A stretch of DNA of 19,508 bases from Candidatus Bathyarchaeum sp. Lineage in GTDB: Archaea > Thermoproteota > Bathyarchaeia > Bathyarchaeales > Bathyarchaeaceae. A program made the translations under genes and the position numbers. The notes beneath the pieces were generated by a model that was given only the letters and a program-made list of their open reading frames with translations, was not told the origin of the DNA and made no database searches. Where the stretch lies: contig JAOZIF010000068.1 in the NCBI GenBank assembly GCA_026014495.1, positions 1 to 19,508 of the forward strand. The letters run 5' to 3'. Positions 444 to 12,125 of this stretch are shown one piece after another. Numbering within the stretch: position 1 is the stretch's first letter; each line of letters starts with the position of its first letter.

Positions 444-1595
444 TTATCTATTGGCTATTGTTCCATTCCAAAATATTAGTTTGCTATATGCGTTTGTGTT
501 GCTAGAATTTAAGCCGTCATCATAAATTACATCCAGTTTAGTTCCATATTGTTCTAGTAGACTGTCAAGATTTGTACATAGTTCAAGCGAAAAATCGTCA
601 GCTGCCCATAAACCCCAAATCTTGTCGTTTGGTCCTCGAAAACCATACCCATAATCTTTTGGAAGAACATATGCTACCCAGTCATTTTTTACATTATTTG
701 TTCTGGGATTATCTTGGATGTACTGCCAGAATCGTTTTAAAGCGTTTAAGTGCTCTTCCTCTAAAATTCCATGAGTATATTCTTCATTAGTATCAAATAT
801 TACAATGTATTTTGCGCCATTTTCATATGCTAAGATCATGTCGTCGTAAAGTTCTTCGCCTGATTCAATGTATGGTGGCTCATTATATGTCCAAGTAACC
901 ATTATTCCCCACTCCTTTTTTTGAACTGTAGCTGCTCCTCTACAGAGTGCCACATTTAATTGTCTACTGTAGTTCCACCCAAACTCTGCAAAGACTACAT
1001 CATATCCTGCTTTGTAGTCAAACCAGTAGAGGGCATAGTCTGAAGTATACAATGGAAAATTCATAGAACTGTTAAAACCTTGTTTGTACCAGTTCAATCG
1101 CTCAGTTGCATCGTTTACAAACTGCTCTTCTGCATCAGTGTAGTTTTCTGCTTCATCAACTCTGAACGGTCTAGGAGTTTTTAGGTCCAATTGCCTTCCA
1201 CATCCTTCATCGAAGGCGTATAATCCAAGAAATTGTTCGCCCCATTTATTGACACAATCAACATAACAGCATACAAACCATTCCATTATGGGAGGCATGT
1301 CCGAGTAAACTATAAACGAAAAGCCCTTCTCGTAAACATATTGACATGTCTCGTAGAGTTGCGTGGTGTTGTAAGTTATACCTGTGCAACCTATAACCAC
1401 TAAATTTGTGTAACTGCTGATTTCGTCAACGAGCATTTGAATTTCTGTAATGTTATCGTAGGCCACATCAATTCCGACGTAAAATTTAATTTGTTCATCT
1501 TTTGGGGGGTCTTTAGCAATTAAAGAATATTGTAAGAGAAGGGCAAAAACTAGCAGAGAACAAAAAAGGATAATTAAAAAGGTTTTGTGTTTCAT
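444..1595 (-). CDS. Secreted or membrane-anchored hypothetical protein, 383 aa, possibly a glycoside-hydrolase-like TIM barrel
   Basis: N-terminal basic-hydrophobic leader MKHKTFLIILFCSLLVFALLLQYSLIA; aromatic/acidic-rich body with FLGLYAFDEG and VVFAEFGWN segments; ATG overlaps the upstream TGA (ATGA, 1592-1595). The function is inference only. Confidence 0.8.
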   Translation of the reverse strand: MKHKTFLIILFCSLLVFALLLQYSLIAKDPPKDEQIKFYVGIDVAYDNITEIQMLVDEISSYTNLVVIGCTGITYNTTQLYETCQYVYEKGFSFIVYSDMPPIMEWFVCCYVDCVNKWGEQFLGLYAFDEGCGRQLDLKTPRPFRVDEAENYTDAEEQFVNDATERLNWYKQGFNSSMNFPLYTSDYALYWFDYKAGYDVVFAEFGWNYSRQLNVALCRGAATVQKKEWGIMVTWTYNEPPYIESGEELYDDMILAYENGAKYIVIFDTNEEYTHGILEEEHLNALKRFWQYIQDNPRTNNVKNDWVAYVLPKDYGYGFRGPNDKIWGLWAADDFSLELCTNLDSLLEQYGTKLDVIYDDGLNSSNTNAYSKLIFWNGTIANR

Positions 1596-2476
1596 TTTAT
1601 TTTAATCTCTCTTGCTCGAACAACATGAGCTCTTCTTTTTCCAGATTTAATTCTAAGCTCTTTTGCGACAATTTTAAGCGAAGTTAGTTTCTTTAAAGCT
1701 GTTAACCACGCCGCCGCTTGTACATCCATATGAAACACCCACTCTCTAGTCATTTCGATTGCTTGGTTTGGACAAACTTTTTCACAGGCTGAACAGAAAA
1801 TGCACAACTCATCATTGATTGCAGGTTTTCCGTCTTCAATGTGGATTGCATAAGTTGGACAAACTTCGGAACAAGCTACACAGCCTTCAGGACAAGCATC
1901 TAGGTTCACAGTTATTTTTCCCATAAACGGTTTCTTAACTAAGATAGCCTTTTGATCACAAGCAAACTCGCAACGTCTACAATAAACACAAAGAGATTTA
2001 TCGATTTTAACATCAATTCTTTCAAGGGTTTCTCCATTTTCCGAGGATGTTGTTGATACTTTGATGGCTTCTGTGGGGCATTCCTTTTGGCATCTGAAGT
2101 CGCAATCGGAAACACACTTCTCTTTGGATACCGTGATTTCCTTTACCAAAACAGGAAATGCCTCGTTTTCTACAATAGTAGCGATTTCTTTTCCATCCAC
2201 TTCCATGACCAGTGCATTCAAAGGACACAATACACTACATTCGCCACACATAACACAGGCATCATCATCTATGTCAATTGACGGTTTTTGGATCAGATGA
2301 CCCTCATAGACTGTTGATTGCAGCAGTTTTATTGCTTCATGAGGACAGACTTCAAAACATACACCACATCCATTGCATATATCCTTGTTCAATTGTAAAC
2401 GATAGTTTTTTGTGAGAAACTTTCGTTCTATTATTGTTTCCTTCAGATTCTCTTGTTTAACCGCTTGTCCACGCAA
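1592..2476 (-). CDS. Polyferredoxin (about six 4Fe-4S motifs), FwdF/FmdF-like
   Basis: Six ferredoxin-type motifs: CNGCGVCFEVCP, CVMCGECSVLCP, CVSDCDFRCQKECP, CVYCRRCEFAC, CPEGCVACSEVCP, CIFCSACEKVCP. The N-terminal layout (..CP.EAI....P.I.ID.D.CV.CG.C..LCP.NAL) resembles FwdF. TTG start at 2476 chosen because GAGGT lies 7 nt upstream; the ORF track start is 2494. Confidence 0.85.
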   Translation of the reverse strand: MRGQAVKQENLKETIIERKFLTKNYRLQLNKDICNGCGVCFEVCPHEAIKLLQSTVYEGHLIQKPSIDIDDDACVMCGECSVLCPLNALVMEVDGKEIATIVENEAFPVLVKEITVSKEKCVSDCDFRCQKECPTEAIKVSTTSSENGETLERIDVKIDKSLCVYCRRCEFACDQKAILVKKPFMGKITVNLDACPEGCVACSEVCPTYAIHIEDGKPAINDELCIFCSACEKVCPNQAIEMTREWVFHMDVQAAAWLTALKKLTSLKIVAKELRIKSGKRRAHVVRAREIKIK

Positions 2477-2520
2477 ACCATCAACCTCAATCAATTTTCA
2501 CGGTTCCCAGTTGCATAAGA

Positions 2521-4968
2521 TCACGCCTTTGCAACCTCAGTAACAACATTAACTTTTTTTTGAGCCAAAGATTGAACAGTTTTTTCTATCTCCAGCTTAG
2601 TAGCACCCTCAACGATTCTTTGCATCTCCCTAATTTTTGATGCAAACTTTTCTCCTTCTGCTGCACTAATCCAAGCTAACTGAAGCCGATTCTTATCCAA
2701 CCCCAATCGTTCCATTTTTTTCCACAATTTTTCAACTCGTCTCTTTGTCTGATAATTAGCATCGATGTAATGGCAATCATTCAGGTGACAACCAGCAACC
2801 AGCACAGCCGCAGCACCTCTAGCAAAAGCCCTTTCAACAAATTTTGGAGAAATCCTGCCGGAGCACATGGTCCGTATTATGCGAACACTAGACGGATATT
2901 GCATTCTGCTTACTCCCGCAAAATCTGCGCCAGCATAGGAGCACCAATTACAACAAAAAGCGATTATTTTCTTGTCCGCATCCTTTGCTGTAGCTGCATC
3001 TATCTGTGCAAATATTTGATCGTCAGTAAAGTGTCGCATTTGTATTGCATTAAATGAACATTCTGCACCACAAGTGCCACATCCTGCGCATGCTGCTTCA
3101 ATAACAGTGGCAAGTTTCTTTTCTTTATCCACAATAATTGCATTATATGGACAAACTCTCGCGCACAAACCACAACCCATGCATTTGTCAGAAAGCATTG
3201 TGGGCGTCAGTGCTTCGACAGTAACACTTCCTTTTGCCATAAGAATTCCTGCACGGGCTGCTGCTGCACTTGCTTGCGTCACGCTATCTTTGATGTCTTT
3301 GGGGCCTTCAGCACAACCTGCAAGAAAAACGCCTCCAGTTGGAGTGTCTACAGGCCTCAATTTCGGATGGGCTTCCATGAAGAAACCATCTGTTGTCTTT
3401 GACAATCTAAGCAACTGTTGAACTTTTTCGCTATCATCTCTGGGTCTAAGACCCACTGACAAAATTACCATGGCCGCATTTACGGTGTAAATTTTTTTCT
3501 CAAGAGTGTTCTCTCCAACCAGCCACAAATTTTTGGTTTTATTGTCCTCGATTATTTCAGCAGGCAATCCACGTATGAAAATGACGCCTTTTTCTTTTGC
3601 TCGTCTGTACAAATCTTCAAAGCCTTTTCCAAATGCACGAATATCGATGTAAAAAACGTAGATTTTGACATCTGGCCAGTGCTCCTTGATTAGTAGTGCA
3701 TCTTTGATTGTGTTCATACAGCATACATTACTGCAGTATGGGTTTCCTTTTTTTTCAGACCTAGAACCAACACATTGAATGAACACAACTGTTTTCGGAA
3801 CATTCATGTCACTTGGACGAACTAGACGACCTCCAGTAGGTCCACCCGCATTTATGAGCCGTTCAAACTCCAACGAAGTTATTATGTTCGAAAATCTGAG
3901 ATAACCATATTCCATTAATGACACTGGATCAAACACGTCTAAGCCAGTGGCTACAATAATTGTGCCAACCTTCAGTTCAATCTCCTCAGCTTTGTCACTG
4001 AAATTTATGGCATCAGGACCACACACTTCTTTACATTTAGCACAAGTATTCTCGCCAAGGCCAATACAGGATTTAGCGTCAATTATGTACCTAGCTGGAA
4101 CGCTTTGGGCAAATGGCATGTAGATGGCTTTTCGTCCAGAAAGCCCCACTTCAAATTCGTTGGGCACTTCCACAGGGCACACTTTAGTGCAATCACCACA
4201 GGCAGTACAATCCTTTGTGATGTACCTTGGATTCTTTTGTACTTTAACTTGGAAATTCCCGATATATCCACCTACCTCAGTAACTTCACAGTTTGTCAAC
4301 AACTCAATGTTAGGATGTTTTCCAACATCGGACATTTTTGGCGCCAAGATACATATTGAACAATCCATTGTTGGAAACGTCTTATCAATCTGAGCCATTT
4401 TTCCTCCAATGCTGGGCTGTTTTTCAACCAAATACACTTTGTACCCAGTGTCAGCCAAATCTAAAGCTGCCTGAATACCCGCAACCCCGCCTCCAATAAC
4501 TAACGTCTGTCTTGTTACGGGGACAACAGTCTCTTCTTGTGGCTCCAGAAGCGCTGACCTAGCAACGGCCATGTGAACTAGATCCTTGGCTTTCGCTGTA
4601 GCTTGTTCTGGTTCGTATAAGTGTACCCAACTACAGTGCTCTCTTATGTTAGCCATCTCGAAGAGATATTTGTTTAGTCCAGCCTCTTCACAGGTCCTTC
4701 TGAATGTTGGTTCATGAAGTCGGGGTGTGCACGATGCTACTACTACCCTGTTAAGGTTATGTTCTTTGATGTCTTTCTTGATTGTTTCTTGCCCTGGATC
4801 TGAGCATGTATACAAATTATGCTTTGACAGTACAACATTAGGAAGCTTAGAAGCATATTCAGCTACGTCTGCGCAGTCTACTGAACCTGCAATGTTTTTG
4901 CCACAGTGACAAACATAAACTCCAATACGGAGTTCTTCGTCTGGTTTAGATTGAATTTTAGGTTCCAT
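2521..4968 (-). CDS. hdrA: Heterodisulfide reductase subunit A fused to a C-terminal MvhD [2Fe-2S] domain (about 815 aa)
   Basis: HdrA signatures RIGVYVCHCG, VVVASCTPRLHE, NIREHCSWVH, GGGVAG FAD loop, DKTFPTMDCSICI, FIQCVGSR, CSNVCC, plus inserted and C-terminal ferredoxin motifs. These are followed by MvhD motifs IIAFCCNWCSYAGAD, IRTMCSGR and GCHLNDCHY. ATG at 4968 has GGAGA upstream. Confidence 0.95.
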   Translation of the reverse strand: MEPKIQSKPDEELRIGVYVCHCGKNIAGSVDCADVAEYASKLPNVVLSKHNLYTCSDPGQETIKKDIKEHNLNRVVVASCTPRLHEPTFRRTCEEAGLNKYLFEMANIREHCSWVHLYEPEQATAKAKDLVHMAVARSALLEPQEETVVPVTRQTLVIGGGVAGIQAALDLADTGYKVYLVEKQPSIGGKMAQIDKTFPTMDCSICILAPKMSDVGKHPNIELLTNCEVTEVGGYIGNFQVKVQKNPRYITKDCTACGDCTKVCPVEVPNEFEVGLSGRKAIYMPFAQSVPARYIIDAKSCIGLGENTCAKCKEVCGPDAINFSDKAEEIELKVGTIIVATGLDVFDPVSLMEYGYLRFSNIITSLEFERLINAGGPTGGRLVRPSDMNVPKTVVFIQCVGSRSEKKGNPYCSNVCCMNTIKDALLIKEHWPDVKIYVFYIDIRAFGKGFEDLYRRAKEKGVIFIRGLPAEIIEDNKTKNLWLVGENTLEKKIYTVNAAMVILSVGLRPRDDSEKVQQLLRLSKTTDGFFMEAHPKLRPVDTPTGGVFLAGCAEGPKDIKDSVTQASAAAARAGILMAKGSVTVEALTPTMLSDKCMGCGLCARVCPYNAIIVDKEKKLATVIEAACAGCGTCGAECSFNAIQMRHFTDDQIFAQIDAATAKDADKKIIAFCCNWCSYAGADFAGVSRMQYPSSVRIIRTMCSGRISPKFVERAFARGAAAVLVAGCHLNDCHYIDANYQTKRRVEKLWKKMERLGLDKNRLQLAWISAAEGEKFASKIREMQRIVEGATKLEIEKTVQSLAQKKVNVVTEVAKA

Positions 4969-6523
4969 TGTTTTCTCTCCCAAAAGCGTTTTCTGCAATA
5001 TCAACTGGGTCCAATGGAATGCCTCTTAGATGGTGGTCGATAGAAAATGCTGCCTGTTTTCCAGCCAGTATGGCTTCGATAAGGGTTCCTGTTCCTAATA
5101 CGGCGTCTCCTCCTGCGAAAATGTTTGGTGAACTTGTTTCCAAAGTGAAGGGGTCTGTTACAATGGTTTTTTGGGTTGTTAATTCAACTGTTTTGGGCAG
5201 AAAAACGGTGTTTGGAGATTGACCGATTGCCATTATAACTGAGTCAGTTGGCATCATAAATTCAGAGCCTTGAATTGGAATAGGACGTCTCCTGCCCGTT
5301 GCATCCTGTTCGCCCAGCTCCATTTTTACACATTCAATTTTGGTTACTTTACCGTTTTCGCCCAAGATTTTTTTTGGAGAGACTAAAAAGTCGATTTTTA
5401 TTCCTTTATCTTTAGCTTCTTTGATTTCCCATGGACTTGCGGGTATCTCCTCTTTTGATCTTCTGTATAGTATCGTGACATCTTTAGCTCCAAGTTTTAA
5501 TGCGGTTCTGGCAGAGTCGATGGCGACGTTGCCTCCGCCGATTATTGAAACCGTGTTTAGCAGTTCGACATTTTTTGTGTTGGCTTTTTCCAGAAAATCA
5601 AGAGCGTGGAAGACTCCGTTTAGTTCTGCGCCTTGGATAGTGAAGTTTTGGTCTTCTTGGGCTCCTGTGGCCACAAATATTGCGTCGTAGCCTTCTTCTA
5701 GAAGTTTCTTTACTTTCTGGGTTCCGTCAATGGGAGTGCTTGTTTTTATTTCAACTCCTAAATCTTTTATTCGCATAATATCGAAGTCAACTAACTTCTT
5801 TGGAAGCCGATATTTTGGAATGCACCTTCTTAACATTCCACCCGCTGACGGTAACGCCTCAAAAACTGTTACAGAATACCCTTTTTTGGCTAAATCATGG
5901 GCTGCTGACATCCCTGCTGGACCAGAACCAATGATGGCAACATTTTTTGTGCTTTTGGCGAAAGGTTGTTCTTTGCTTTTTTCAGGGCTGCTTGTTAGAA
6001 TAGCTTGTTGAATTGCGTCAGCTACTATTTGTTGATTTTTTATTACCCGTTCAGGATGGAAACAAACATAGCTGCATGAAATTGGCAATGGAATGTTTTT
6101 ACTGATTATTTCCAATGCTTTAATGAAGCCTTCAGAGTATCCGGATTCAACGGCATATCTTCTGACAACCTGAAAGATTTCTGGAAGGTTAAGTTTCTGC
6201 GGACATCGTCTATAACAACGATAACACCAAGCGCACAACCACAATTGAGGTGACTTTAGAATTTTTTCATCACCTAGAGGCAAGCTGTGGAGAAGTATCC
6301 GAGGATTATAATATTCTGGGAGTATTTTTGCAATTGGACAAATACCCGTGCAAATTCCACAACCGTTACAGTATTTCAGTTTCTCAAAATCAAGCAGGTC
6401 TTCCAGAATTTTATCTAAACTGGGGCGTTGTTCATTACCCTGTAACTCGTCTTTAGGAACATGCATTGGATGCAACATTTCTGTTTTAGTCTCTCCTATT
6501 TTGGGGCTATCTTTGTGTGCCAT
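4958..6523 (-). CDS. Fusion of an HdrC-like 2x[4Fe-4S] domain and a GltD/SudA(NfnB)-type FAD/NAD(P) oxidoreductase (about 521 aa)
   Basis: N-terminal CNGCGICTGICP...NPR...WLCAWCYRCYRRCP (HdrC pattern), then IPLPISCSYVCFHP (partial GltD Fe-S motif), GSGPAG, GGMLRRCIPKYRLP, ATGA, GGGNVAIDSAR, YRR and FAGGD. Its stop overlaps the hdrA start by 11 nt. The start is uncertain (6523 ATG; track gives 6562). Confidence 0.88.
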   Translation of the reverse strand: MAHKDSPKIGETKTEMLHPMHVPKDELQGNEQRPSLDKILEDLLDFEKLKYCNGCGICTGICPIAKILPEYYNPRILLHSLPLGDEKILKSPQLWLCAWCYRCYRRCPQKLNLPEIFQVVRRYAVESGYSEGFIKALEIISKNIPLPISCSYVCFHPERVIKNQQIVADAIQQAILTSSPEKSKEQPFAKSTKNVAIIGSGPAGMSAAHDLAKKGYSVTVFEALPSAGGMLRRCIPKYRLPKKLVDFDIMRIKDLGVEIKTSTPIDGTQKVKKLLEEGYDAIFVATGAQEDQNFTIQGAELNGVFHALDFLEKANTKNVELLNTVSIIGGGNVAIDSARTALKLGAKDVTILYRRSKEEIPASPWEIKEAKDKGIKIDFLVSPKKILGENGKVTKIECVKMELGEQDATGRRRPIPIQGSEFMMPTDSVIMAIGQSPNTVFLPKTVELTTQKTIVTDPFTLETSSPNIFAGGDAVLGTGTLIEAILAGKQAAFSIDHHLRGIPLDPVDIAENAFGRENNGT

Positions 6524-6666
6524 CACATTTTGTTTTGTACATTTTCTGGTTTTGACCCACAATTAGCACAAAAACTGAATTGCTTTGGAAAAGTGTGTTG
6601 ACTGCATCCAAACGGGTATGCCCTCGAAACAGCCAGTTTTGTTTTAAGAATTCGTGTAGTGCTCAT
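6523..6666 (-). CDS. Possible 47-aa ORF with a degenerate zinc-ribbon motif
   Basis: MSTTRILKTKLAVSRAYPFGCSQHTFPKQFSFCANCGSKPENVQNKM; FCANCG resembles a zinc-ribbon half-site; its TGA overlaps the next ATG (TGATG). A TATA-like TTTATA only about 15 nt upstream argues it may lie in the 5' UTR or promoter instead. Confidence 0.3.
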   Translation of the reverse strand: MSTTRILKTKLAVSRAYPFGCSQHTFPKQFSFCANCGSKPENVQNKM

Positions 6667-7181: not shown

Positions 7182-7964
7182 GTGAAGATTGCTGTTTCTG
7201 GAAAAGGTGGAGTGGGTAAGACCCTTGTTTCTGGGACTCTTTCTGGGTATTTTGCACAAAAAGGCTTCAAAGTTATGGCTATTGATGCAGACCCATCGCC
7301 TAACCTAGCTTTAACTTTGGGAATACCTGTTGAGGAAGCAAACAAGATAGTTCCAATTTCCGAGAATTCCGAACTACTAGAGTCAAAGACCAAAACTGAC
7401 TATCCTGGAGTATTCAAACTCCATTTCACTGTGGATGACATAGTTGAACAGAACGGAATGAAGTCACCCTATGGCGTAAACTTGCTTGTCATGGGAACAA
7501 TCAAATCTGCTGGTGGAGGATGCGCCTGCGGAGCTAATGCTGTTATCAGGGAGCTTCTTCGCCACCTGATTGTTGACCGAGACGAGATTGTCATTGTGGA
7601 CATGGAGGCTGGCGTGGAGCACATGGGACGGGGAACAGCGAGCCACGTCGATGTTATGCTTGTAGTTGTTGATTCTAGCCGAAAGTCTTTGGAGATAGCC
7701 AAGAAAATTTCTGGTTTCGCTCATGATGCGGGAATAAAGAACGTTTTTGTTGTTGGAAACAGGGTTAGAGACTCTGAAGAAACGGAGTTGATTACTGATT
7801 TCACCGAAAAAAATGGGCTCTCGTTACTTGCTTTGATTCCATACGATGATACCGTCATAAAAGCTGACCGTGTTGGAGAGGCTCCTCTTAAGTACGCACA
7901 AACTTCAGAGGGCGTAAAGGCTATTCAAGTAATCGGCGAAAAACTTCTTCAAGACAGGGCATAA
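7182..7964 (+). CDS. cooC: CooC/AcsF-type nickel-insertion ATPase (CO dehydrogenase/ACS maturation factor)
   Basis: MKIAVSGKGGVGKT deviant Walker A, IDADPSPNL, GGGCAC Ni-binding CxC, VDMEAGVEHMGRG switch II; GGTGA SD 7 nt before the GTG. Confidence 0.92.
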   Translation: MKIAVSGKGGVGKTLVSGTLSGYFAQKGFKVMAIDADPSPNLALTLGIPVEEANKIVPISENSELLESKTKTDYPGVFKLHFTVDDIVEQNGMKSPYGVNLLVMGTIKSAGGGCACGANAVIRELLRHLIVDRDEIVIVDMEAGVEHMGRGTASHVDVMLVVVDSSRKSLEIAKKISGFAHDAGIKNVFVVGNRVRDSEETELITDFTEKNGLSLLALIPYDDTVIKADRVGEAPLKYAQTSEGVKAIQVIGEKLLQDRA

Positions 7965-7986
7965 CTTTTTGTAGGTTCTGGAAGGT

Positions 7987-8421
7987 TTGAGCCAAAAGGA
8001 AATCAAATCTGTTCTAGAAAGTTACAGAACTGTAGCTGTTGTGGGGCTATCTAGAAACCCCGTCAAAGCTAGCCATAAAGTAGCACGGTATTTGCAGTCT
8101 GTTGGTTACCGTGTTATTCCTGTTAATCCTTTTGTTGACAAACTTTTGGGAGAATCGTCGTACAAAAGCCTCTTGGATATACCCGAAAAAGTAGACATAA
8201 TAGACATATTCAGGCCCTCCGGAGATGTTTCTACCCTTGTAGATGAAGCCATCACATTAAAGAAAAAAGTTGGGTCTCCCAAGGTTATCTGGATGCAGTT
8301 AGGAATCGTTAACGAAGATGCAGCTAGGCGCGCAAAAGAGGCGGGTTTCACTGTCGTAATGGACAGATGCATTATGATGGAGCATAAACGCCTCAGCATG
8401 GAAGACGTTCTGGAACGTTGA
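7987..8421 (+). CDS. CoA-binding protein (YccU-like)
   Basis: VAVVGLSRNP.KASH.VARYLQ..GY.VIPVNP, VDIIDIFRP, WMQLGI.NE.AA..A..AG..VVMDRCIM; lies 22 nt downstream of cooC on the same strand. Confidence 0.92.
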   Translation: MSQKEIKSVLESYRTVAVVGLSRNPVKASHKVARYLQSVGYRVIPVNPFVDKLLGESSYKSLLDIPEKVDIIDIFRPSGDVSTLVDEAITLKKKVGSPKVIWMQLGIVNEDAARRAKEAGFTVVMDRCIMMEHKRLSMEDVLER

Positions 8422-8488
8422 ATGAGAAACATCTTAAATAATTGTTGCTAGTTTGTTATTACATTACACTCAAAGGAAGGAAACAGCC

Positions 8489-8632
8489 ATGGATTTGTCT
8501 GAACAAAGAATTCTCGGTTCTCTTGTCTTGCTTGCTGGTATATCATGCCTGGCAATTGGATTATACACAGACCAATTAACAACTGTAACAGAAATTATCG
8601 GTAACGTACTCAAAGCAGCAATCGCTGGTTAA
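8489..8632 (+). CDS. Small membrane protein, 47 aa (absent from the ORF track)
   Basis: MDLSEQRILGSLVLLAGISCLAIGLYTDQLTTVTEIIGNVLKAAIAG; GGAAGG SD upstream, TATA-like CTTAAATA about 50 nt upstream, one hydrophobic helix, and it fills the gap between two genes. Confidence 0.65.
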   Translation: MDLSEQRILGSLVLLAGISCLAIGLYTDQLTTVTEIIGNVLKAAIAG

Positions 8633-8648
8633 TTTATTAGGCGACTTT

Positions 8649-9662
8649 TTATTTTTTATGTGACGTCCAAAGGCCTAATAGTTGTGAGGTTTCCTTAAGA
8701 GGATTTTTTAGAACCATTGAAACTCCGACAGTGCATTCAAGCCAACACCCCTTGCATGCGGAGACTTTACGCCATGCTTCACTGTCTTGTTTTTTCAAAG
8801 CATTATCGACAGAATCACATAACGTGTCGCCAAGCATGAGGTCTGAGCGAGCAGGACACGCCAAAAGTTTTCCTTCTGGATTAATTGCAACATACAGTTC
8901 TCCAGCGTGACATATTTTTGGCGTTTTTCCCTTGAAGAACTGTTCAAAGCCTTTGAGAAACTCTGTAGGTACTGCTAGAAAACTGGGGTCAGAGTGCTTA
9001 AGTTTTAGCAAATAGTCTATCAGCTTGGAAACTTGTTTGCTGCTTGGAACATTTTCAGGTGATGGCGGATAAGGATGCATGGGCTGAACTTGAGCAAAAT
9101 CAACTTTGCTGCGGAGTTCCTCTTCTATGAATTGGGGTAAAATATCGATGTTCCATGGAGTGGCAACGCTGTTTACTCCAACTTTTACTCCATTTTTTTT
9201 CAGCAAACTTACAGCTTTAGTTGCTTTATCATAAGTTCCGGGCACTCCCCTTATCTGATCATGAACCTCTTTAGGTCCGTCAAGTGATACGACAACCGTG
9301 TCAAAGGCATCCGCTATTTCATTAACTCTGTTTTGGTTCAGGAGTGTTCCATTGGTGTTCATACTAACTAAGCATCCGTGAGATGCCACTCTCTTGGCTA
9401 GAACAATCAGGTCTTTACGCAAAAGGGGCTCGCCTCCGCTGAGGTCAAAAAATGGAACCCCCAATTTACAGACCGCATCTATTGCTGCCAATGCCTTTTT
9501 TGTTGGCAGTTCGGGGATTTCATTTTTCCACCATTCACAAAAAGTGCATTTCATGTTACATCTACCTGTCACGTTGTATGATGCAAAGAGTGGAGTGGGT
9601 CTGCCTGCCTTGAACTTGAGAAATCCAGTAACTACCTTGGTGGCTAATTGGCTTGTTTTCAT
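8649..9662 (-). CDS. Radical SAM protein with a SPASM/Twitch-like C-terminal Cys cluster
   Basis: CNMKCTFC (CxxxCxxC), SGGEPLLR, NTNG, VSLDG..EVHD.IRG, then C-terminal CHAG...INPEG...CP...CKGCWLEC. Substrate not assignable. Track start is 9677. Confidence 0.9.
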   Translation of the reverse strand: MKTSQLATKVVTGFLKFKAGRPTPLFASYNVTGRCNMKCTFCEWWKNEIPELPTKKALAAIDAVCKLGVPFFDLSGGEPLLRKDLIVLAKRVASHGCLVSMNTNGTLLNQNRVNEIADAFDTVVVSLDGPKEVHDQIRGVPGTYDKATKAVSLLKKNGVKVGVNSVATPWNIDILPQFIEEELRSKVDFAQVQPMHPYPPSPENVPSSKQVSKLIDYLLKLKHSDPSFLAVPTEFLKGFEQFFKGKTPKICHAGELYVAINPEGKLLACPARSDLMLGDTLCDSVDNALKKQDSEAWRKVSACKGCWLECTVGVSMVLKNPLKETSQLLGLWTSHKK

Positions 9663-9743
9663 GCTTCTATTCCACAACTTTTGTTATAACGTAACAAAAC
9701 TGATGTTCAGTGAATCTTAGGTATGTCCCATCTTCTTGGTAGT

Positions 9744-10325
9744 TTAATTTTTTTGTTTCATTCGGTCATACATTTTTTCTAGAGTCCAGCGGATTGAAGA
9801 TTTTAGTTCCCGTAATCTTTCAGACCTGAGGTTTGTAATTGTTATCTCTTTGATTGCGTTTCCGTCCTGTTTAATATCATAGGCCACCGTCTTTTCCGGG
9901 TCTAACTTACCTTTGCTGACATCTTCTTTGTCTTTTTCCAGCATCTTCGCCAACACTCGCTCCACAAAAAATGATATGAACGGCGGCGTATTGATGTCAA
10001 AGTTTTTATCTTCCGCCAACACGATCTGTGTTTCATCTTTTTCGGTGTATATTTGGGCTAAAACGTCTCCAGTCACAGTCTTTAATGGAATACCTTTTCT
10101 TTGTGGCTTAGCCGGAGACGGCTGTGGTGCTTCTTGTTTTTTAGGTGCCTGAACTGGCTTGTTGATTTCAGCTCTTTTGAAGCTTTCCTTAAGCAGGGTT
10201 GAGTCTATTAGACTAAGCAACGTTTTTACTCCATCTAATTCTGTTTCCATTTCTTCTACACGTTTTTCTAGGAGAGCACGCAACTTGGCTATCTTTTTGA
10301 TTTTTTCTCTTTCTTCTTCACTCAT
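9744..10325 (-). CDS. Hypothetical protein (about 193 aa) with an N-terminal coiled coil
   Basis: Heptad-like N-terminus (LRALLEKRVEEMETELDGVKTLL), Pro/Gln linker, globular C-terminus containing TPPFISFFVERVL; ATG at 10325 with a purine-rich SD. Confidence 0.8.
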   Translation of the reverse strand: MSEEEREKIKKIAKLRALLEKRVEEMETELDGVKTLLSLIDSTLLKESFKRAEINKPVQAPKKQEAPQPSPAKPQRKGIPLKTVTGDVLAQIYTEKDETQIVLAEDKNFDINTPPFISFFVERVLAKMLEKDKEDVSKGKLDPEKTVAYDIKQDGNAIKEITITNLRSERLRELKSSIRWTLEKMYDRMKQKN

Positions 10326-10482
10326 CTTTGTATTCCCTTCAAGCAACAATTCTACGTTTCAGTCCAAGCTTCAAGTGACTATTTTACAATAATACGTATG
10401 AAATAAGCCCTTTTAAGCTTGGTTTATCTTAGGAAAACAGTTACACCCAACTTAACGAAATAAAATGTATGTTTGTGAATGT

Positions 10483-10956
10483 TTATGTTGTTAGAGTGGG
10501 TAGTTCGTCGGCGTGTTTGAATTCTATGTTCCAGCCTTCTTCTAAAAAGTGTTCAAACTCCTTGAAGACACTGCTTTTTGTTTCGTTAATTTTTCGGCAG
10601 ATGTTTTTTCCTGTATACATGCAGCTTAGATCAAATATGGCGTTTTTTTGTGACAACTCTGTGTTTTCTTTAATCCAAGATATCAAGAATTCTGGGGGTC
10701 TTTCTTGGAATAGCCAACCAGTGTATGAAATGTTTACTACTTCGTAAGAGTTGCCGCGGCGGATTCCGCATTTGCGGTTTTTGGCGATTTTTTCAAATGT
10801 GGATGGGTGGATGGTTTGTGTCCAAAGAAAACTGTGGTATTTGTTGTCTTCTGTTTTTATCCAGTCTTCAGTTTCGCATGTTTCCCAACCAGTCAATCGG
10901 CATTGCTCCTTAAAATTGTCGATTAATCTCCAAACTGTGGGAAATGGAAAATTCAT
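10483..10956 (-). CDS. Hypothetical protein, 157 aa
   Basis: Clean ORF filling the gap between genes, with protein-like composition; divergent from the Lrp gene. Confidence 0.75.
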   Translation of the reverse strand: MNFPFPTVWRLIDNFKEQCRLTGWETCETEDWIKTEDNKYHSFLWTQTIHPSTFEKIAKNRKCGIRRGNSYEVVNISYTGWLFQERPPEFLISWIKENTELSQKNAIFDLSCMYTGKNICRKINETKSSVFKEFEHFLEEGWNIEFKHADELPTLTT

Positions 10957-11116
10957 TGGTATTTCCTAGTTGTTATCTATAGAATACTAATCTATTGTCA
11001 TAGATTTAAGGTTGTTTGACAGGAATGCCGAAAAAATGTTGGTTGAGTCTTCAAAAATTGAACAAATGTAGGTTGAATTGCTTTTTATGTTACATTTTTC
11101 TGTAACTTGTGGTAAA

Positions 11117-11150
11117 TTCCGTAAACTTGACAATTGAAAATTTTACGGAA
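11117..11150. promoter_or_regulatory. 34-bp imperfect palindrome, candidate Lrp operator
   Basis: TTCCGTAAA-cttga-CAATTG-aaaat-TTTACGGAA: perfect 9-bp arms with the CAATTG palindrome exactly at the centre, in the intergenic region between two divergent genes. Confidence 0.6.
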
Positions 11151-11235
11151 AAAGGTTGAAGAATCTACATTTTTCCGACAGCAAACGCTAAATTAGCAAA
11201 CTTGGCAGATAGTCTGTATATTCAAGGTTTGGACA

Positions 11236-11715
11236 ATGAAACTAAAAAACCAAGTATTTTCTCTTGATGATCTAGACTTGAAAATATTGCATATTATCCA
11301 AGAAAATTCAAAGCAAACATACTCGGAAGTGGGTCGTCAACTAGGCGTAGCCCATTCTACAGTCTATGATCGAATAAGAAAGTTAGAGAAAAGCGGTGTT
11401 ATTAAAAAATGGACCGTTGAACTTGACCTTGAAACGCTTGGTTTAAACCATATTACGGCACTCATGACCGTTTACACTGACCCAAAAGAGAGCGAGAACG
11501 TTGCAAAAAAGTTGTCAGATGCTAAGGAGGTTTTGGAGGTTTCATTGTCGCTTTCTGAAGAACTGTTGATACTTGTAAAAGTGCTTGCCAATGACCAAGA
11601 TGAGCTTCATTCGTTCATAGCAAAAAAGGTTGCACCCCTTCAGGGTGTGCTGAGAATCCGAACTTCGATAATTACAAAGAAAATTAAAGAAGAAAGGTTT
11701 TTGATTACGACATAA
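11236..11715 (+). CDS. Lrp/AsnC family transcriptional regulator
   Basis: LDDLDLKILHIIQENSKQTYSEVGRQLGVAHSTVYDRIRKLEKSGVIK HTH, followed by a RAM-type C-terminal domain ending GVLRIRTSII. Confidence 0.95.
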   Translation: MKLKNQVFSLDDLDLKILHIIQENSKQTYSEVGRQLGVAHSTVYDRIRKLEKSGVIKKWTVELDLETLGLNHITALMTVYTDPKESENVAKKLSDAKEVLEVSLSLSEELLILVKVLANDQDELHSFIAKKVAPLQGVLRIRTSIITKKIKEERFLITT

Positions 11716-11795
11716 TGAAAAGTATAAAAGTTTAAGTATCTACAGTTAAAGTGGAAAGAATCTCTTTCTTGTATTAAAACGGAGAGTTTCAATCG

Positions 11796-12125
11796 TTGAC
11801 TCCTTCATCTTCCACTCGAATTCTTAGAGAATTATCAAGAAAGAACGCTTTCTATTTCTTTTCGTCTGTAGGCAACTACACTGGACACAGAGCAATGTCT
11901 CTAGAGGAGTTTGCAACAAAAATCAGAGAAGTCGAAACTGCCTCTTTAGAGTTTCACCTATACCGAGGAGACTTCGAAAAATGGGCAGATGAAGTTCTTG
12001 AAGACCCTGAACTAACAAGAAGAATAAGTGCAGTGAAACTTTTAGAGCCCACCGGCAACGCATTACGAGACCAGATGGATTTCACAATTTCAAAACGTCT
12101 TGTGGAACTGAAGAGCAGTCAATAG
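11796..12125 (+). CDS. DUF5752-like protein, 109 aa
   Basis: AFYF....G.YTG..A.SLEEF...I.......LEFHLYRGDFEKW...L.D.EL pattern recognised as DUF5752-type; GGAGA SD before the TTG. Confidence 0.7.
   Translation: MTPSSSTRILRELSRKNAFYFFSSVGNYTGHRAMSLEEFATKIREVETASLEFHLYRGDFEKWADEVLEDPELTRRISAVKLLEPTGNALRDQMDFTISKRLVELKSSQ

Follow-up and report, generated by a model that had tools for sequence, protein, structure and literature searches.

Few flavin-based electron-bifurcating cores are known, HdrA being one of them, and Bathyarchaeia are among the most abundant archaea of sediments. The balance of ferredoxin, reduced nicotinamide adenine dinucleotide (phosphate) (NAD(P)H), F420, and H2 in the latter was described as unresolved (PMC7886697), and a 2026 paper still gave the HdrA family as a bifurcating family without NAD(P)H use (PMC13689815). 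For HdrA proteins bearing a GltD module, a role as the point where NAD(P)H enters was proposed (PMC2702500, PMC9012536, PMC12054007); these were reported as HdrL with mvhD in D. autotrophicum in 2009 (PMC2702500), as an NfnB inserted in HdrA of anaerobic methanotrophic archaea (ANME-1) in 2022 (PMC9012536), and as type III HdrA, including a Bathyarchaeota class, in 2025 (PMC12054007). An HdrAL/POR cluster was described for S. fumaroxidans in 2018 (PMC5947623). M. acetivorans possesses a polyferredoxin-hdrA2 operon (MA2868/MA2867), and its HdrA2 alone shows ferredoxin (Fdx):F420 activity (PMC5296606). Here, we analyzed a 19.5-kb window, which is the entire contig C96 of a Bathyarchaeia metagenome-assembled genome (G000; 2.19 Mb, 196 contigs, 93% complete), which the public names of the nearest homologues assign to this class. 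It carries three genes in tandem on the minus strand, encoding a chimera of an HdrC-like domain and a GltD/NfnB-like flavoprotein, an HdrA-MvhD fusion (HdrA2), and a polyferredoxin (Table 1). We assign a probability of about 0.5 to the reading that these three genes encode one soluble, HdrB-independent iron–sulfur flavoprotein complex built around HdrA2, which would link NADP(H) with low-potential electrons and would likely be bifurcating or confurcating.

The locus shares with the MvhAGD-HdrABC complex (5ODC, 8RVU, 7BKB) an HdrA with sites for flavin adenine dinucleotide (FAD) and six [4Fe-4S] clusters that can be aligned from end to end, an MvhD module, an HdrC-type dicluster domain predicted at the HdrA surface, and a polyferredoxin whose best match is of the FmdF/FwdF type. 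It differs in that the operon has no HdrB, no non-cubane CCG clusters, and no hydrogenase or Fmd genes; moreover, its HdrC domain is devoid of the HdrB-binding C-terminus and is fused to a putative NADPH flavoprotein, while MvhD is fused to HdrA. An HdrA-MvhD fusion scoring above the NCBIfam cut-off, a co-operonic polyferredoxin, and hdrBC genes placed outside the operon are all shared with M. acetivorans, of which the enzyme acts through HdrB2C2 on CoM-S-S-CoB with F420H2 and ferredoxin (HdrA2B2C2, PMC5296606). Unlike that operon, the present one has a dedicated HdrC::GltD subunit translationally coupled to HdrA2, and its gene order is chimera, HdrA2, polyferredoxin. With HdrL, type III HdrA, and HdrA-NfnB, which are known from genomes alone, it has in common that a GltD/NfnB-type NAD(P)H module accompanies HdrA and MvhD and that HdrB is not needed, and with the S. 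fumaroxidans HdrAL/POR cluster it shares a tie to a 2-oxoacid:ferredoxin oxidoreductase (OFOR). The sequence-only reading of this DNA had proposed a new complex; GltD-bearing HdrA without HdrB is already known from these genomes (HdrL, HdrA-NfnB, type III HdrA, HdrAL/POR), so that newness in this broad sense was not sustained. In HdrL and type III HdrA, however, a canonical GltD module (Fer4_20, CGRVC..C...C) sits inside the inserted-ferredoxin domain of HdrA itself (L031, L034, P0128, and others, from Bathyarchaeia and bacteria), whereas here two separate genes are present, the GltD-type subunit has had its own iron–sulfur domain swapped for one of HdrC type, and it accompanies a dedicated HdrA2 subclade. 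This swap suggests that the module points at the HdrC site and not at the ferredoxin site. The possibility that the N-terminus of the chimera and the type III HdrA/HdrL insert are one module was considered and rejected, as those inserts carry canonical GltD motifs and only the first HdrA ferredoxin motif aligns. The FAD/NADPH fold and YRR(S/T) motif are shared with NfnSL/NfnAB and NfnABC/StnABC (5JCA, 4YLF, 9N5U, 9BOV, 8OH5), though the cluster motifs at the N-terminus differ from those of NfnB and the operon contains no gene for an NfnA/NfnS or GltB partner. The arrangement of an HdrC::GltD subunit with HdrA2 was not found in full-text literature searches.

The open reading frames of the three redox genes were found in the tandem order given by the sequence-only reading. 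The chimera ends at 4958 and the HdrA2 ATG lies at 4968, which makes an overlap of 11 nucleotides; HdrA2 ends at 2521, and the distance to the polyferredoxin is 26 nucleotides when the latter starts from TTG 2494, or 44 nucleotides when it starts from TTG 2476, which matches the earlier gap of about 45. For the chimera, the start at ATG 6466 is that of the public gene call P0001 and ATG 6523 is that of the earlier reading; residue numbers hereafter refer to the 502-residue form unless stated. Protein families were assigned by Pfam and NCBIfam with curated cut-offs. No CCG (HdrB) or NiFe hydrogenase domain was matched in the window, as the absence of hdrB and mvhAG claimed earlier would have it. 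HdrA2 scored 1276 bits against NF040770 (cut-off 1100) over profile positions 1–774 of 777, which places it in the HdrA2 family, and a FlpD/MvhD domain was located at residues 680–798 of the 827-residue HdrA2 open reading frame. Its residues 11–658 aligned without large gaps to residues 2–648 of M. wolfeii HdrA (5odc_A, E = 1.3e-254), and residues 665–789 aligned with MvhD (5odc_D, E = 1.1e-45). Across 16 aligned orthologues and paralogues, all cluster cysteines of HdrA2 were invariant, namely C20/22, C203/206, C254–264, C301–316, C399/412/416/417, C596–606, and C627–637; the quartet C399/C412/C416/C417 coincides with C386/C399/C403/C404 of the solved HdrA. HdrA2 hence has the FAD-binding thioredoxin-reductase fold and every [4Fe-4S] cysteine of a bifurcating HdrA, including the CC quartet. 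The view that this HdrA is canonical was checked by the alignment for loss of bifurcating-FAD residues, and none was lost.

The chimera consists of a Fer4_8/Fer4_17 domain of HdrC type followed by a Pyr_redox_2 domain of GltD/NfnB type (Pfam, E = 1.5e-38), and its NCBIfam matches (gltA, PRK12771, HdrC) were partial. This domain content bears out the earlier description, in which HdrC is joined to a flavoprotein that binds NAD(P). The HdrC-like domain contains the signatures YNPR and LWLCAWCxxCxxRCPQ, is 38–42% identical to the genome's own two HdrC proteins, and matched solved HdrC chains (8rvv, 5odc) with E of about 1e-15 in the PDB. Its eight cysteines (C33, C36, C39, C43, C78, C81, C84, and C88), which form the two Fer4_8/17-type motifs of the HdrC dicluster, were invariant across 49 homologues. 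As a whole, however, the chimera is not a full-length HdrC: it scored 66.5 bits against a cut-off of 160 (TIGR03290/NF041779) and covered only profile positions 2–81 of 144, the HdrB-binding C-terminal part of HdrC being absent and the remainder of the profile being replaced by the GltD-like enzyme. From about residue 83 to 482, the chimera aligned with NfnB, NfnL, the GltD-like part of NfnA of NfnABC, StnC, and dihydropyrimidine dehydrogenase, with PDB matches to NfnA (9n5u_A), NfnB (4ylf_B), and 5jca_L. It thus possesses the FAD- and NADPH-binding fold of NfnB/NfnL/GltD. Residues Y334, R335, R336, and S337 were nearly invariant in the chimera clade; the arrangement of GGGNVA followed by YRRS is common to the NADPH-binding NfnB and NfnA, and distant homologues have an acidic residue there. 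The iron–sulfur domain that such enzymes carry was missing, since no Fer4_20 match was obtained and the gltA score was 294 against a cut-off of 472; the second iron–sulfur motif of GltD (CGRVC..C...C) was degenerate (SCSYVCFHPER, xCFHPER), with non-conserved cysteines. Judged by these motifs, the chimera is an NfnB/GltD-type enzyme whose usual N-terminal iron–sulfur domain was replaced by one of HdrC type. An AlphaFold2 model of the chimera had a predicted local distance difference test (pLDDT) value of 85 and a predicted template-modeling (pTM) score of 0.86, and its top Foldseek matches were NfnL, NfnABC, and StnC (E = 1e-37 to 1e-34, template-modeling score 0.64–0.67). The flavin of the chimera itself is probably not the bifurcating site, as only one exit route is visible for its electrons.

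An interface between HdrA and the HdrC-like domain, which the sequence-only reading presupposed, was looked for by co-folding HdrA2 residues 1–660 with chimera residues 15–128. The pair scored 0.65, while the best of three controls scored 0.00, and this passed a mark that 58 of 80 solved complexes attain, as do 2 of 110 mismatched pairs. At least 96% of contacts agreed between runs, and the partner pLDDT was at least 80. Chimera residues 32–57 and 87–91, around the first cysteine motif, were predicted to contact HdrA2 residues 399, 403–407, 467–471, and 484–493, which would place the docking site beside the C399 cluster quartet. The co-fold thus supported the interface, though such a pass may reflect likeness to solved HdrA-HdrC complexes (5ODC and others) and is not independent proof of binding.

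Conservation was evaluated in 201 Bathyarchaeia species genomes, which are related to each other and are not independent trials. Full-length chimera orthologues occurred in 14 genomes besides that of the window, and the gene adjoined HdrA2 in every one of them; this indicates that the pairing did not arise by chance. The corresponding HdrA2 subclade (at least 64% identity) was found in 15 sampled genomes, that is, the same 14 and G015, where the HdrA2 copy starts at a contig edge, and the next-best matches, at most 58% identical, represent a widespread paralogue. Identity among the orthologues was 65–89% for HdrA2 and 40–71% for the chimera. One of the five other species of the window's genus has the operon, and the chimera-HdrA2 pair was also observed in Ca. 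Bathyarchaeum; a metagenome contig with 57% identity has it as well. The chimera family comprises more than 120 metagenome clusters at 57% identity or above, of which the named ones are all Bathyarchaeota or Thermoproteota. A contig scan with the chimera alignment gave, among the matches listed, only bacterial and Asgard HdrL-type loci of at most 42% identity and none from Bathyarchaeia. Within the three-gene order, synteny is strict for the chimera and HdrA2, and the third gene varies. The co-fold, the strict co-occurrence, and the gene overlap together led us to read the chimera as occupying the HdrC site of HdrA2. A 40%-identical homologue (P0125) lies on a 48-kb ENA contig (L065) with TonB-dependent receptor genes, in an operon ordered ferredoxin, 2-oxoglutarate-type OFOR (KOR) alpha, beta, and gamma, chimera, and HdrA2, the last being split or frameshifted. 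The receptor genes make the contig look bacterial, but HdrA2 and KOR on it are 60–74% identical to those of Bathyarchaeia. Either a bacterium may have acquired the operon horizontally or the assembly may be chimeric, and the contig was hence not counted as independent bacterial evidence.

The gene that follows HdrA2 encodes a ferredoxin-type module in 13 of the 16 loci, with the window counted. The window, Ca. Bathyarchaeum, G169, G139, and G148 have the polyferredoxin directly after HdrA2, and seven others (G062, G130, G124, G110, G184, G072, and G123) have the genes of an OFOR, namely those for its delta ferredoxin and its alpha, beta, and gamma subunits, which NCBIfam assigned to the 2-oxoglutarate/2-oxoacid (KOR) type. 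In G043 and G101 the genes are rearranged yet clustered, with a polyferredoxin gene beside the rearranged pair in G043, and two loci have the chimera-HdrA2 pair alone. The same KOR association appears in another gene order on the P0125 contig. No orthologue of the operon-linked KOR was found in the window's own genome, where the best match was 33% identical. The polyferredoxin, of which orthologues come after HdrA2 at five related loci, has six CxxCxxCxxxC-type motifs, that is, three 2x[4Fe-4S] units, and a basic C-terminal helix conserved among orthologues. Its best PDB matches were FmdF (7bkb_K, 1.4e-41) and FwdF (5t5i_F, 5.8e-38), and its best NCBIfam match was FwdF at 164 bits, well below the cut-off of 375. 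As separate observations, HdrA2 in G081 (L158, 13685–15047) is followed by a delta-type ferredoxin and then by cdhC for an acetyl-CoA synthase subunit, and a divergent 2,4-diaminopentanoate dehydrogenase-like gene (DAP_DH_C) lies upstream of the chimera-HdrA2-KOR genes at L153, L155, L157, and L160 (G062, G124, G184, and G072), which hints at a context of amino-acid (ornithine) fermentation.

These data suggest how such a complex might work. The HdrC-like domain of the chimera would dock on HdrA2 at the position of the methanogen HdrC, and the branch leading to HdrB and the heterodisulfide in methanogens would lead instead to the GltD flavin and then to NADP+/NADPH. The six-cluster polyferredoxin would be the ferredoxin-level partner, with KOR delta-alpha-beta-gamma taking the same position in sister lineages, and either the polyferredoxin or the KOR delta subunit would supply or accept ferredoxin-level electrons through the HdrA flavin. 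The predicted complex would probably link the NADPH and ferredoxin pools of the cell, most likely in a flavin-based bifurcating or confurcating reaction for which the MvhD domain would bind a third, mid-potential partner. In such an arrangement, the canonical Hdr geometry, reportedly that of Wagner et al. 2017 (cited in PMC13689815), would require that the donor at MvhD have a potential near −420 mV. The leading candidate for this third partner would be H2 via MvhAG, with the reaction NADPH + reduced ferredoxin <-> 2 H2. F420 would be an alternative, because the M. acetivorans HdrA2 alone has Fdx:F420 activity. The electron path, the NADPH specificity, the reaction direction, and the third partner are all inferred. 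The conserved unit of two or three genes is a concrete and expressible candidate for an NADP-coupled Hdr enzyme, and a NADPH flavoprotein at the HdrC position would be a natural experiment on rewiring the high-potential branch of HdrA.

The partner types that are visible in the sequence are two only, a ferredoxin-level module and NADP(H). Several observations weigh against this proposal. A panel of 26 proteins was searched for up to about 8–10 kb on each side of 15 orthologous loci, and no mid-potential partner (mvhAG, frhB, fdh, hdrB, or fwd) was found within about 8 kb; nfnA and fwdB were not found around these loci either. MvhG was present in 11 of the 14 operon-bearing genomes, but this does not discriminate, because its base rate is 57% in the sample and it is present in nearly all genomes of the same order. 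Within the genus, mvhGA shares its operon with another hdrA/mvhD-hdrC-hdrB set, and the NADPH specificity of the chimera is predicted from the YRRS motif only. A hydrogenase docked on this HdrA2 is possible, with no support from synteny. A true three-way HdrA bifurcating or confurcating enzyme, with NADP+/NADPH substituted for the heterodisulfide, is put forward tentatively, as somewhat less probable than an even bet. One form of it could be, by analogy, an archaeal [NiFe]/HdrA counterpart of the NADH- and ferredoxin-dependent HydABC with MvhAG docked on MvhD, which might catalyze NADPH + reduced ferredoxin or 2-oxoglutarate <-> 2 H2; another could be a confurcase that uses ferredoxin + NADPH -> F420H2. 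If the three-way reading is true, no earlier member of the Hdr bifurcating family would have been NADP-coupled, and the enzyme would be hard-wired in several lineages to 2-oxoglutarate:ferredoxin oxidoreductase.

Because synteny supports neither H2 nor F420, a linear, non-bifurcating ferredoxin (2-oxoacid):NADP+ oxidoreductase is a serious rival, although we consider it on balance rather unlikely. Low-potential electrons, coming from ferredoxin, the polyferredoxin, or the attached OFOR, would here pass the HdrA2 clusters, the HdrC-like domain, and the GltD flavin to reduce NADP+, or run in reverse, as in pyruvate:NADP+ oxidoreductase or the NAD-dependent phenylglyoxylate dehydrogenase PadEFGHI. 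Precedents are known in which an OFOR has gained a flavoprotein that reduces NAD(P), seven lineages have the OFOR genes joined straight into the operon, the NCBIfam models of PadE/G/H/I gave weak matches, and no syntenic third partner appeared at the 15 loci. A plain wire, however, would need no 815-residue HdrA-MvhD in which the FAD site, six [4Fe-4S] sites, and the [2Fe-2S] cysteines of MvhD are kept at 65–89% identity, and other Bathyarchaeia clusters (L076) join an OFOR to plain GltD-type proteins without a full HdrA. A downhill drop of about 200 mV would also be wasted. If the enzyme were only a linear ferredoxin:NADP+ reductase, it would be an ordinary addition to the known list.

The genome's other Hdr genes bear on a further rival, an NADPH-dependent heterodisulfide reductase, in which the chimera would feed NADPH to HdrA2 and an HdrC/HdrB pair encoded elsewhere (contig C82 or C186) would complete an HdrABC. 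The sequence-only reading had pointed to an hdrB elsewhere as a potential partner of the HdrC domain; two copies of hdrB indeed exist, each accompanied by an hdrC of its own in a separate operon (C82, C186). The C82 pair (1–2004) is preceded by an HdrA-MvhD gene truncated at the contig start, and mvhG with a partial mvhA lies at the end of contig C46 (39437–41076). As the congener G148 has an intact operon mvhG-mvhA-hdrA/mvhD-hdrC-hdrB (L068, 5026–11258), these two ends therefore represent one canonical Mvh-Hdr operon split by assembly. Separately, in the congener G090, mvhGA lies directly before gap-pgk without hdrACB. The C186 cluster (L013, 3408–8463) encodes a 406-residue Fd-MvhD-Fd-MvhD protein, proteins like NfnA and NfnB (the latter with Fer4_20), HdrC, and HdrB; having NfnA-like and NfnB-like genes and MvhD domains and no HdrA of its own, it speaks for this rival. 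A second polyferredoxin-HdrA2 pair (L012, 4786–8159), of which the HdrA2 is 51–53% identical to that of the window, nevertheless resides 10 kb from this cluster on C186 and is a more natural partner for it. Moreover, none of the 15 orthologous loci has hdrB, no CCG domain occurs in the window or at these loci, so that no HdrB with two CCG domains is encoded there with this HdrA and HdrC-like domain, and the co-fold puts the HdrC-like domain by the C399 cluster loop, where HdrC is expected. This rival is hence quite improbable. The C186 cluster is in itself another uncharacterized NADPH-linked Hdr arrangement.

The polyferredoxin might instead be an equivalent of FwdF that wires the complex to formylmethanofuran dehydrogenase, with CO2 reduction driven together with NAD(P)+ reduction, as the earlier reading had it. 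FmdF/FwdF links Hdr to Fmd in methanogens (PMC13580544, PMC13518236). The best PDB and NCBIfam matches are of this type, and the genome has fwdA, fwdB, and fwdD. Nevertheless, the score lies under half of the family cut-off, six instead of eight cluster motifs are present, the fwd genes are found on a different contig (C137), of which the part that was read showed no polyferredoxin, and sister lineages have a KOR-type OFOR or a delta-type ferredoxin at this position, never fwd. The paralogous polyferredoxin-HdrA2 pair is, furthermore, near-universal in the class, as in Methanosarcina (PMC5296606). The proposed Fwd link was therefore abandoned as highly unlikely. An enzyme resembling class II benzoyl-CoA reductase, in which the electrons of a ferredoxin-level donor (KOR or the polyferredoxin) would be split by the HdrA flavin, one going downhill to NADP+ and one uphill to a very-low-potential acceptor, as the HdrA-like modules with NAD-linked subunits of BamBCDEFGHI are thought to do (bioRxiv 10.64898/2026.04.10.717634), is a purely analogical reading to which we give very little credence, since no AOR/BamB-like very-low-potential reductase lies near any of the 15 loci.

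The metabolic background assumed by the sequence-only reading, that of a non-methanogenic C1 archaeon, is reasonable: mcrA was not found in a genome search, and FwdABD and a fragment of cdhC are present. The Pfam CdhC search of the genome gave no match, which was a false negative, as tblastn with the CdhC of a relative recovered 122 residues of the C-terminus, 72% identical, right where contig C166 begins; acetyl-CoA synthase is thus probably present but broken by assembly. The genome also has a CofE gene. On contig C71 (L049, 4678–15644), a Fpo/Nuo-like complex is encoded by NuoB, a fused NuoCD, NuoH, and three antiporter-like subunits, followed by a 499-residue FrhB/FpoF-like protein with two CBS domains.

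Table 1. Coordinates of the three redox genes, the domains of the chimera, and two adjacent reading frames in the window.
Feature	Position	Strand	Remarks
Chimera, HdrC-like::GltD/NfnB-like flavoprotein	4958–6523	minus	521 residues from ATG 6523, or 502 residues from ATG 6466
HdrC-like dicluster domain of the chimera	6113–6388	minus	residues 27–118; CxxCxxCxxxCP twice
FAD + predicted NADPH dinucleotide-binding part of the chimera	5021–5974	minus	residues 165–482; GSGPAG (FAD), GGGNVA, YRRS
HdrA2 (HdrA-MvhD fusion)	2521–4968	minus	815 residues; NF040770 above cut-off
Polyferredoxin, six clusters	1592–2494	minus	300 residues; Pfam Fer4 families
Possible zinc-ribbon open reading frame	6526–6666	minus	47 residues (C-x2-H ... 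C-x2-C); stop overlaps chimera ATG 6523
Protein with N-terminal hydrophobic anchor	444–1595	minus	383 residues; without Pfam or NCBIfam family; ATG overlaps polyferredoxin stop by 4 nucleotides

Two reading frames flank the operon closely (Table 1). The possible zinc-ribbon frame has a counterpart upstream of the Ca. Bathyarchaeum operon (L015, 7016–7156) with 49% identity over all 47 residues, and its membership of the system is uncertain; an additional gene for a Fer4_11 iron–sulfur protein also lies upstream of the chimera in Ca. Bathyarchaeum and G148. The 383-residue protein was rejected as a member, because its gene is not beside the operon in relatives and at least eight paralogues exist in the genome. 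Scans for sigma-70 promoters and terminators, which are not applicable to archaea, gave no more matches than shuffled sequence. The other genes of the window are unrelated and encode a P-loop ATPase, a CoA-binding protein, a radical-SAM enzyme, an Lrp/AsnC regulator, DNA ligase, NosD, a permease, and PurA. The genes at 7182–12125 partly recur beside the operon on the 57%-identical metagenome contig (P0119), namely those for a CbiA/ParA/NifH-like P-loop ATPase, a radical-SAM protein, an Lrp/AsnC regulator, and DUF5752; the same contig has genes for NifU and a MinD-type iron–sulfur ATPase, and these may be maturation factors. Elsewhere in Bathyarchaeia, a separate GltD-like family of about 560–700 residues has ferredoxin and MvhD domains fused to it or placed after it, and an HdrA-like gene comes next (L030, L032, L036, L039–L041, L044; P0126), and true type III HdrA into which GltD is inserted also occurs (L031, L034). 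Bathyarchaeia hence have many ways of joining GltD to HdrA.

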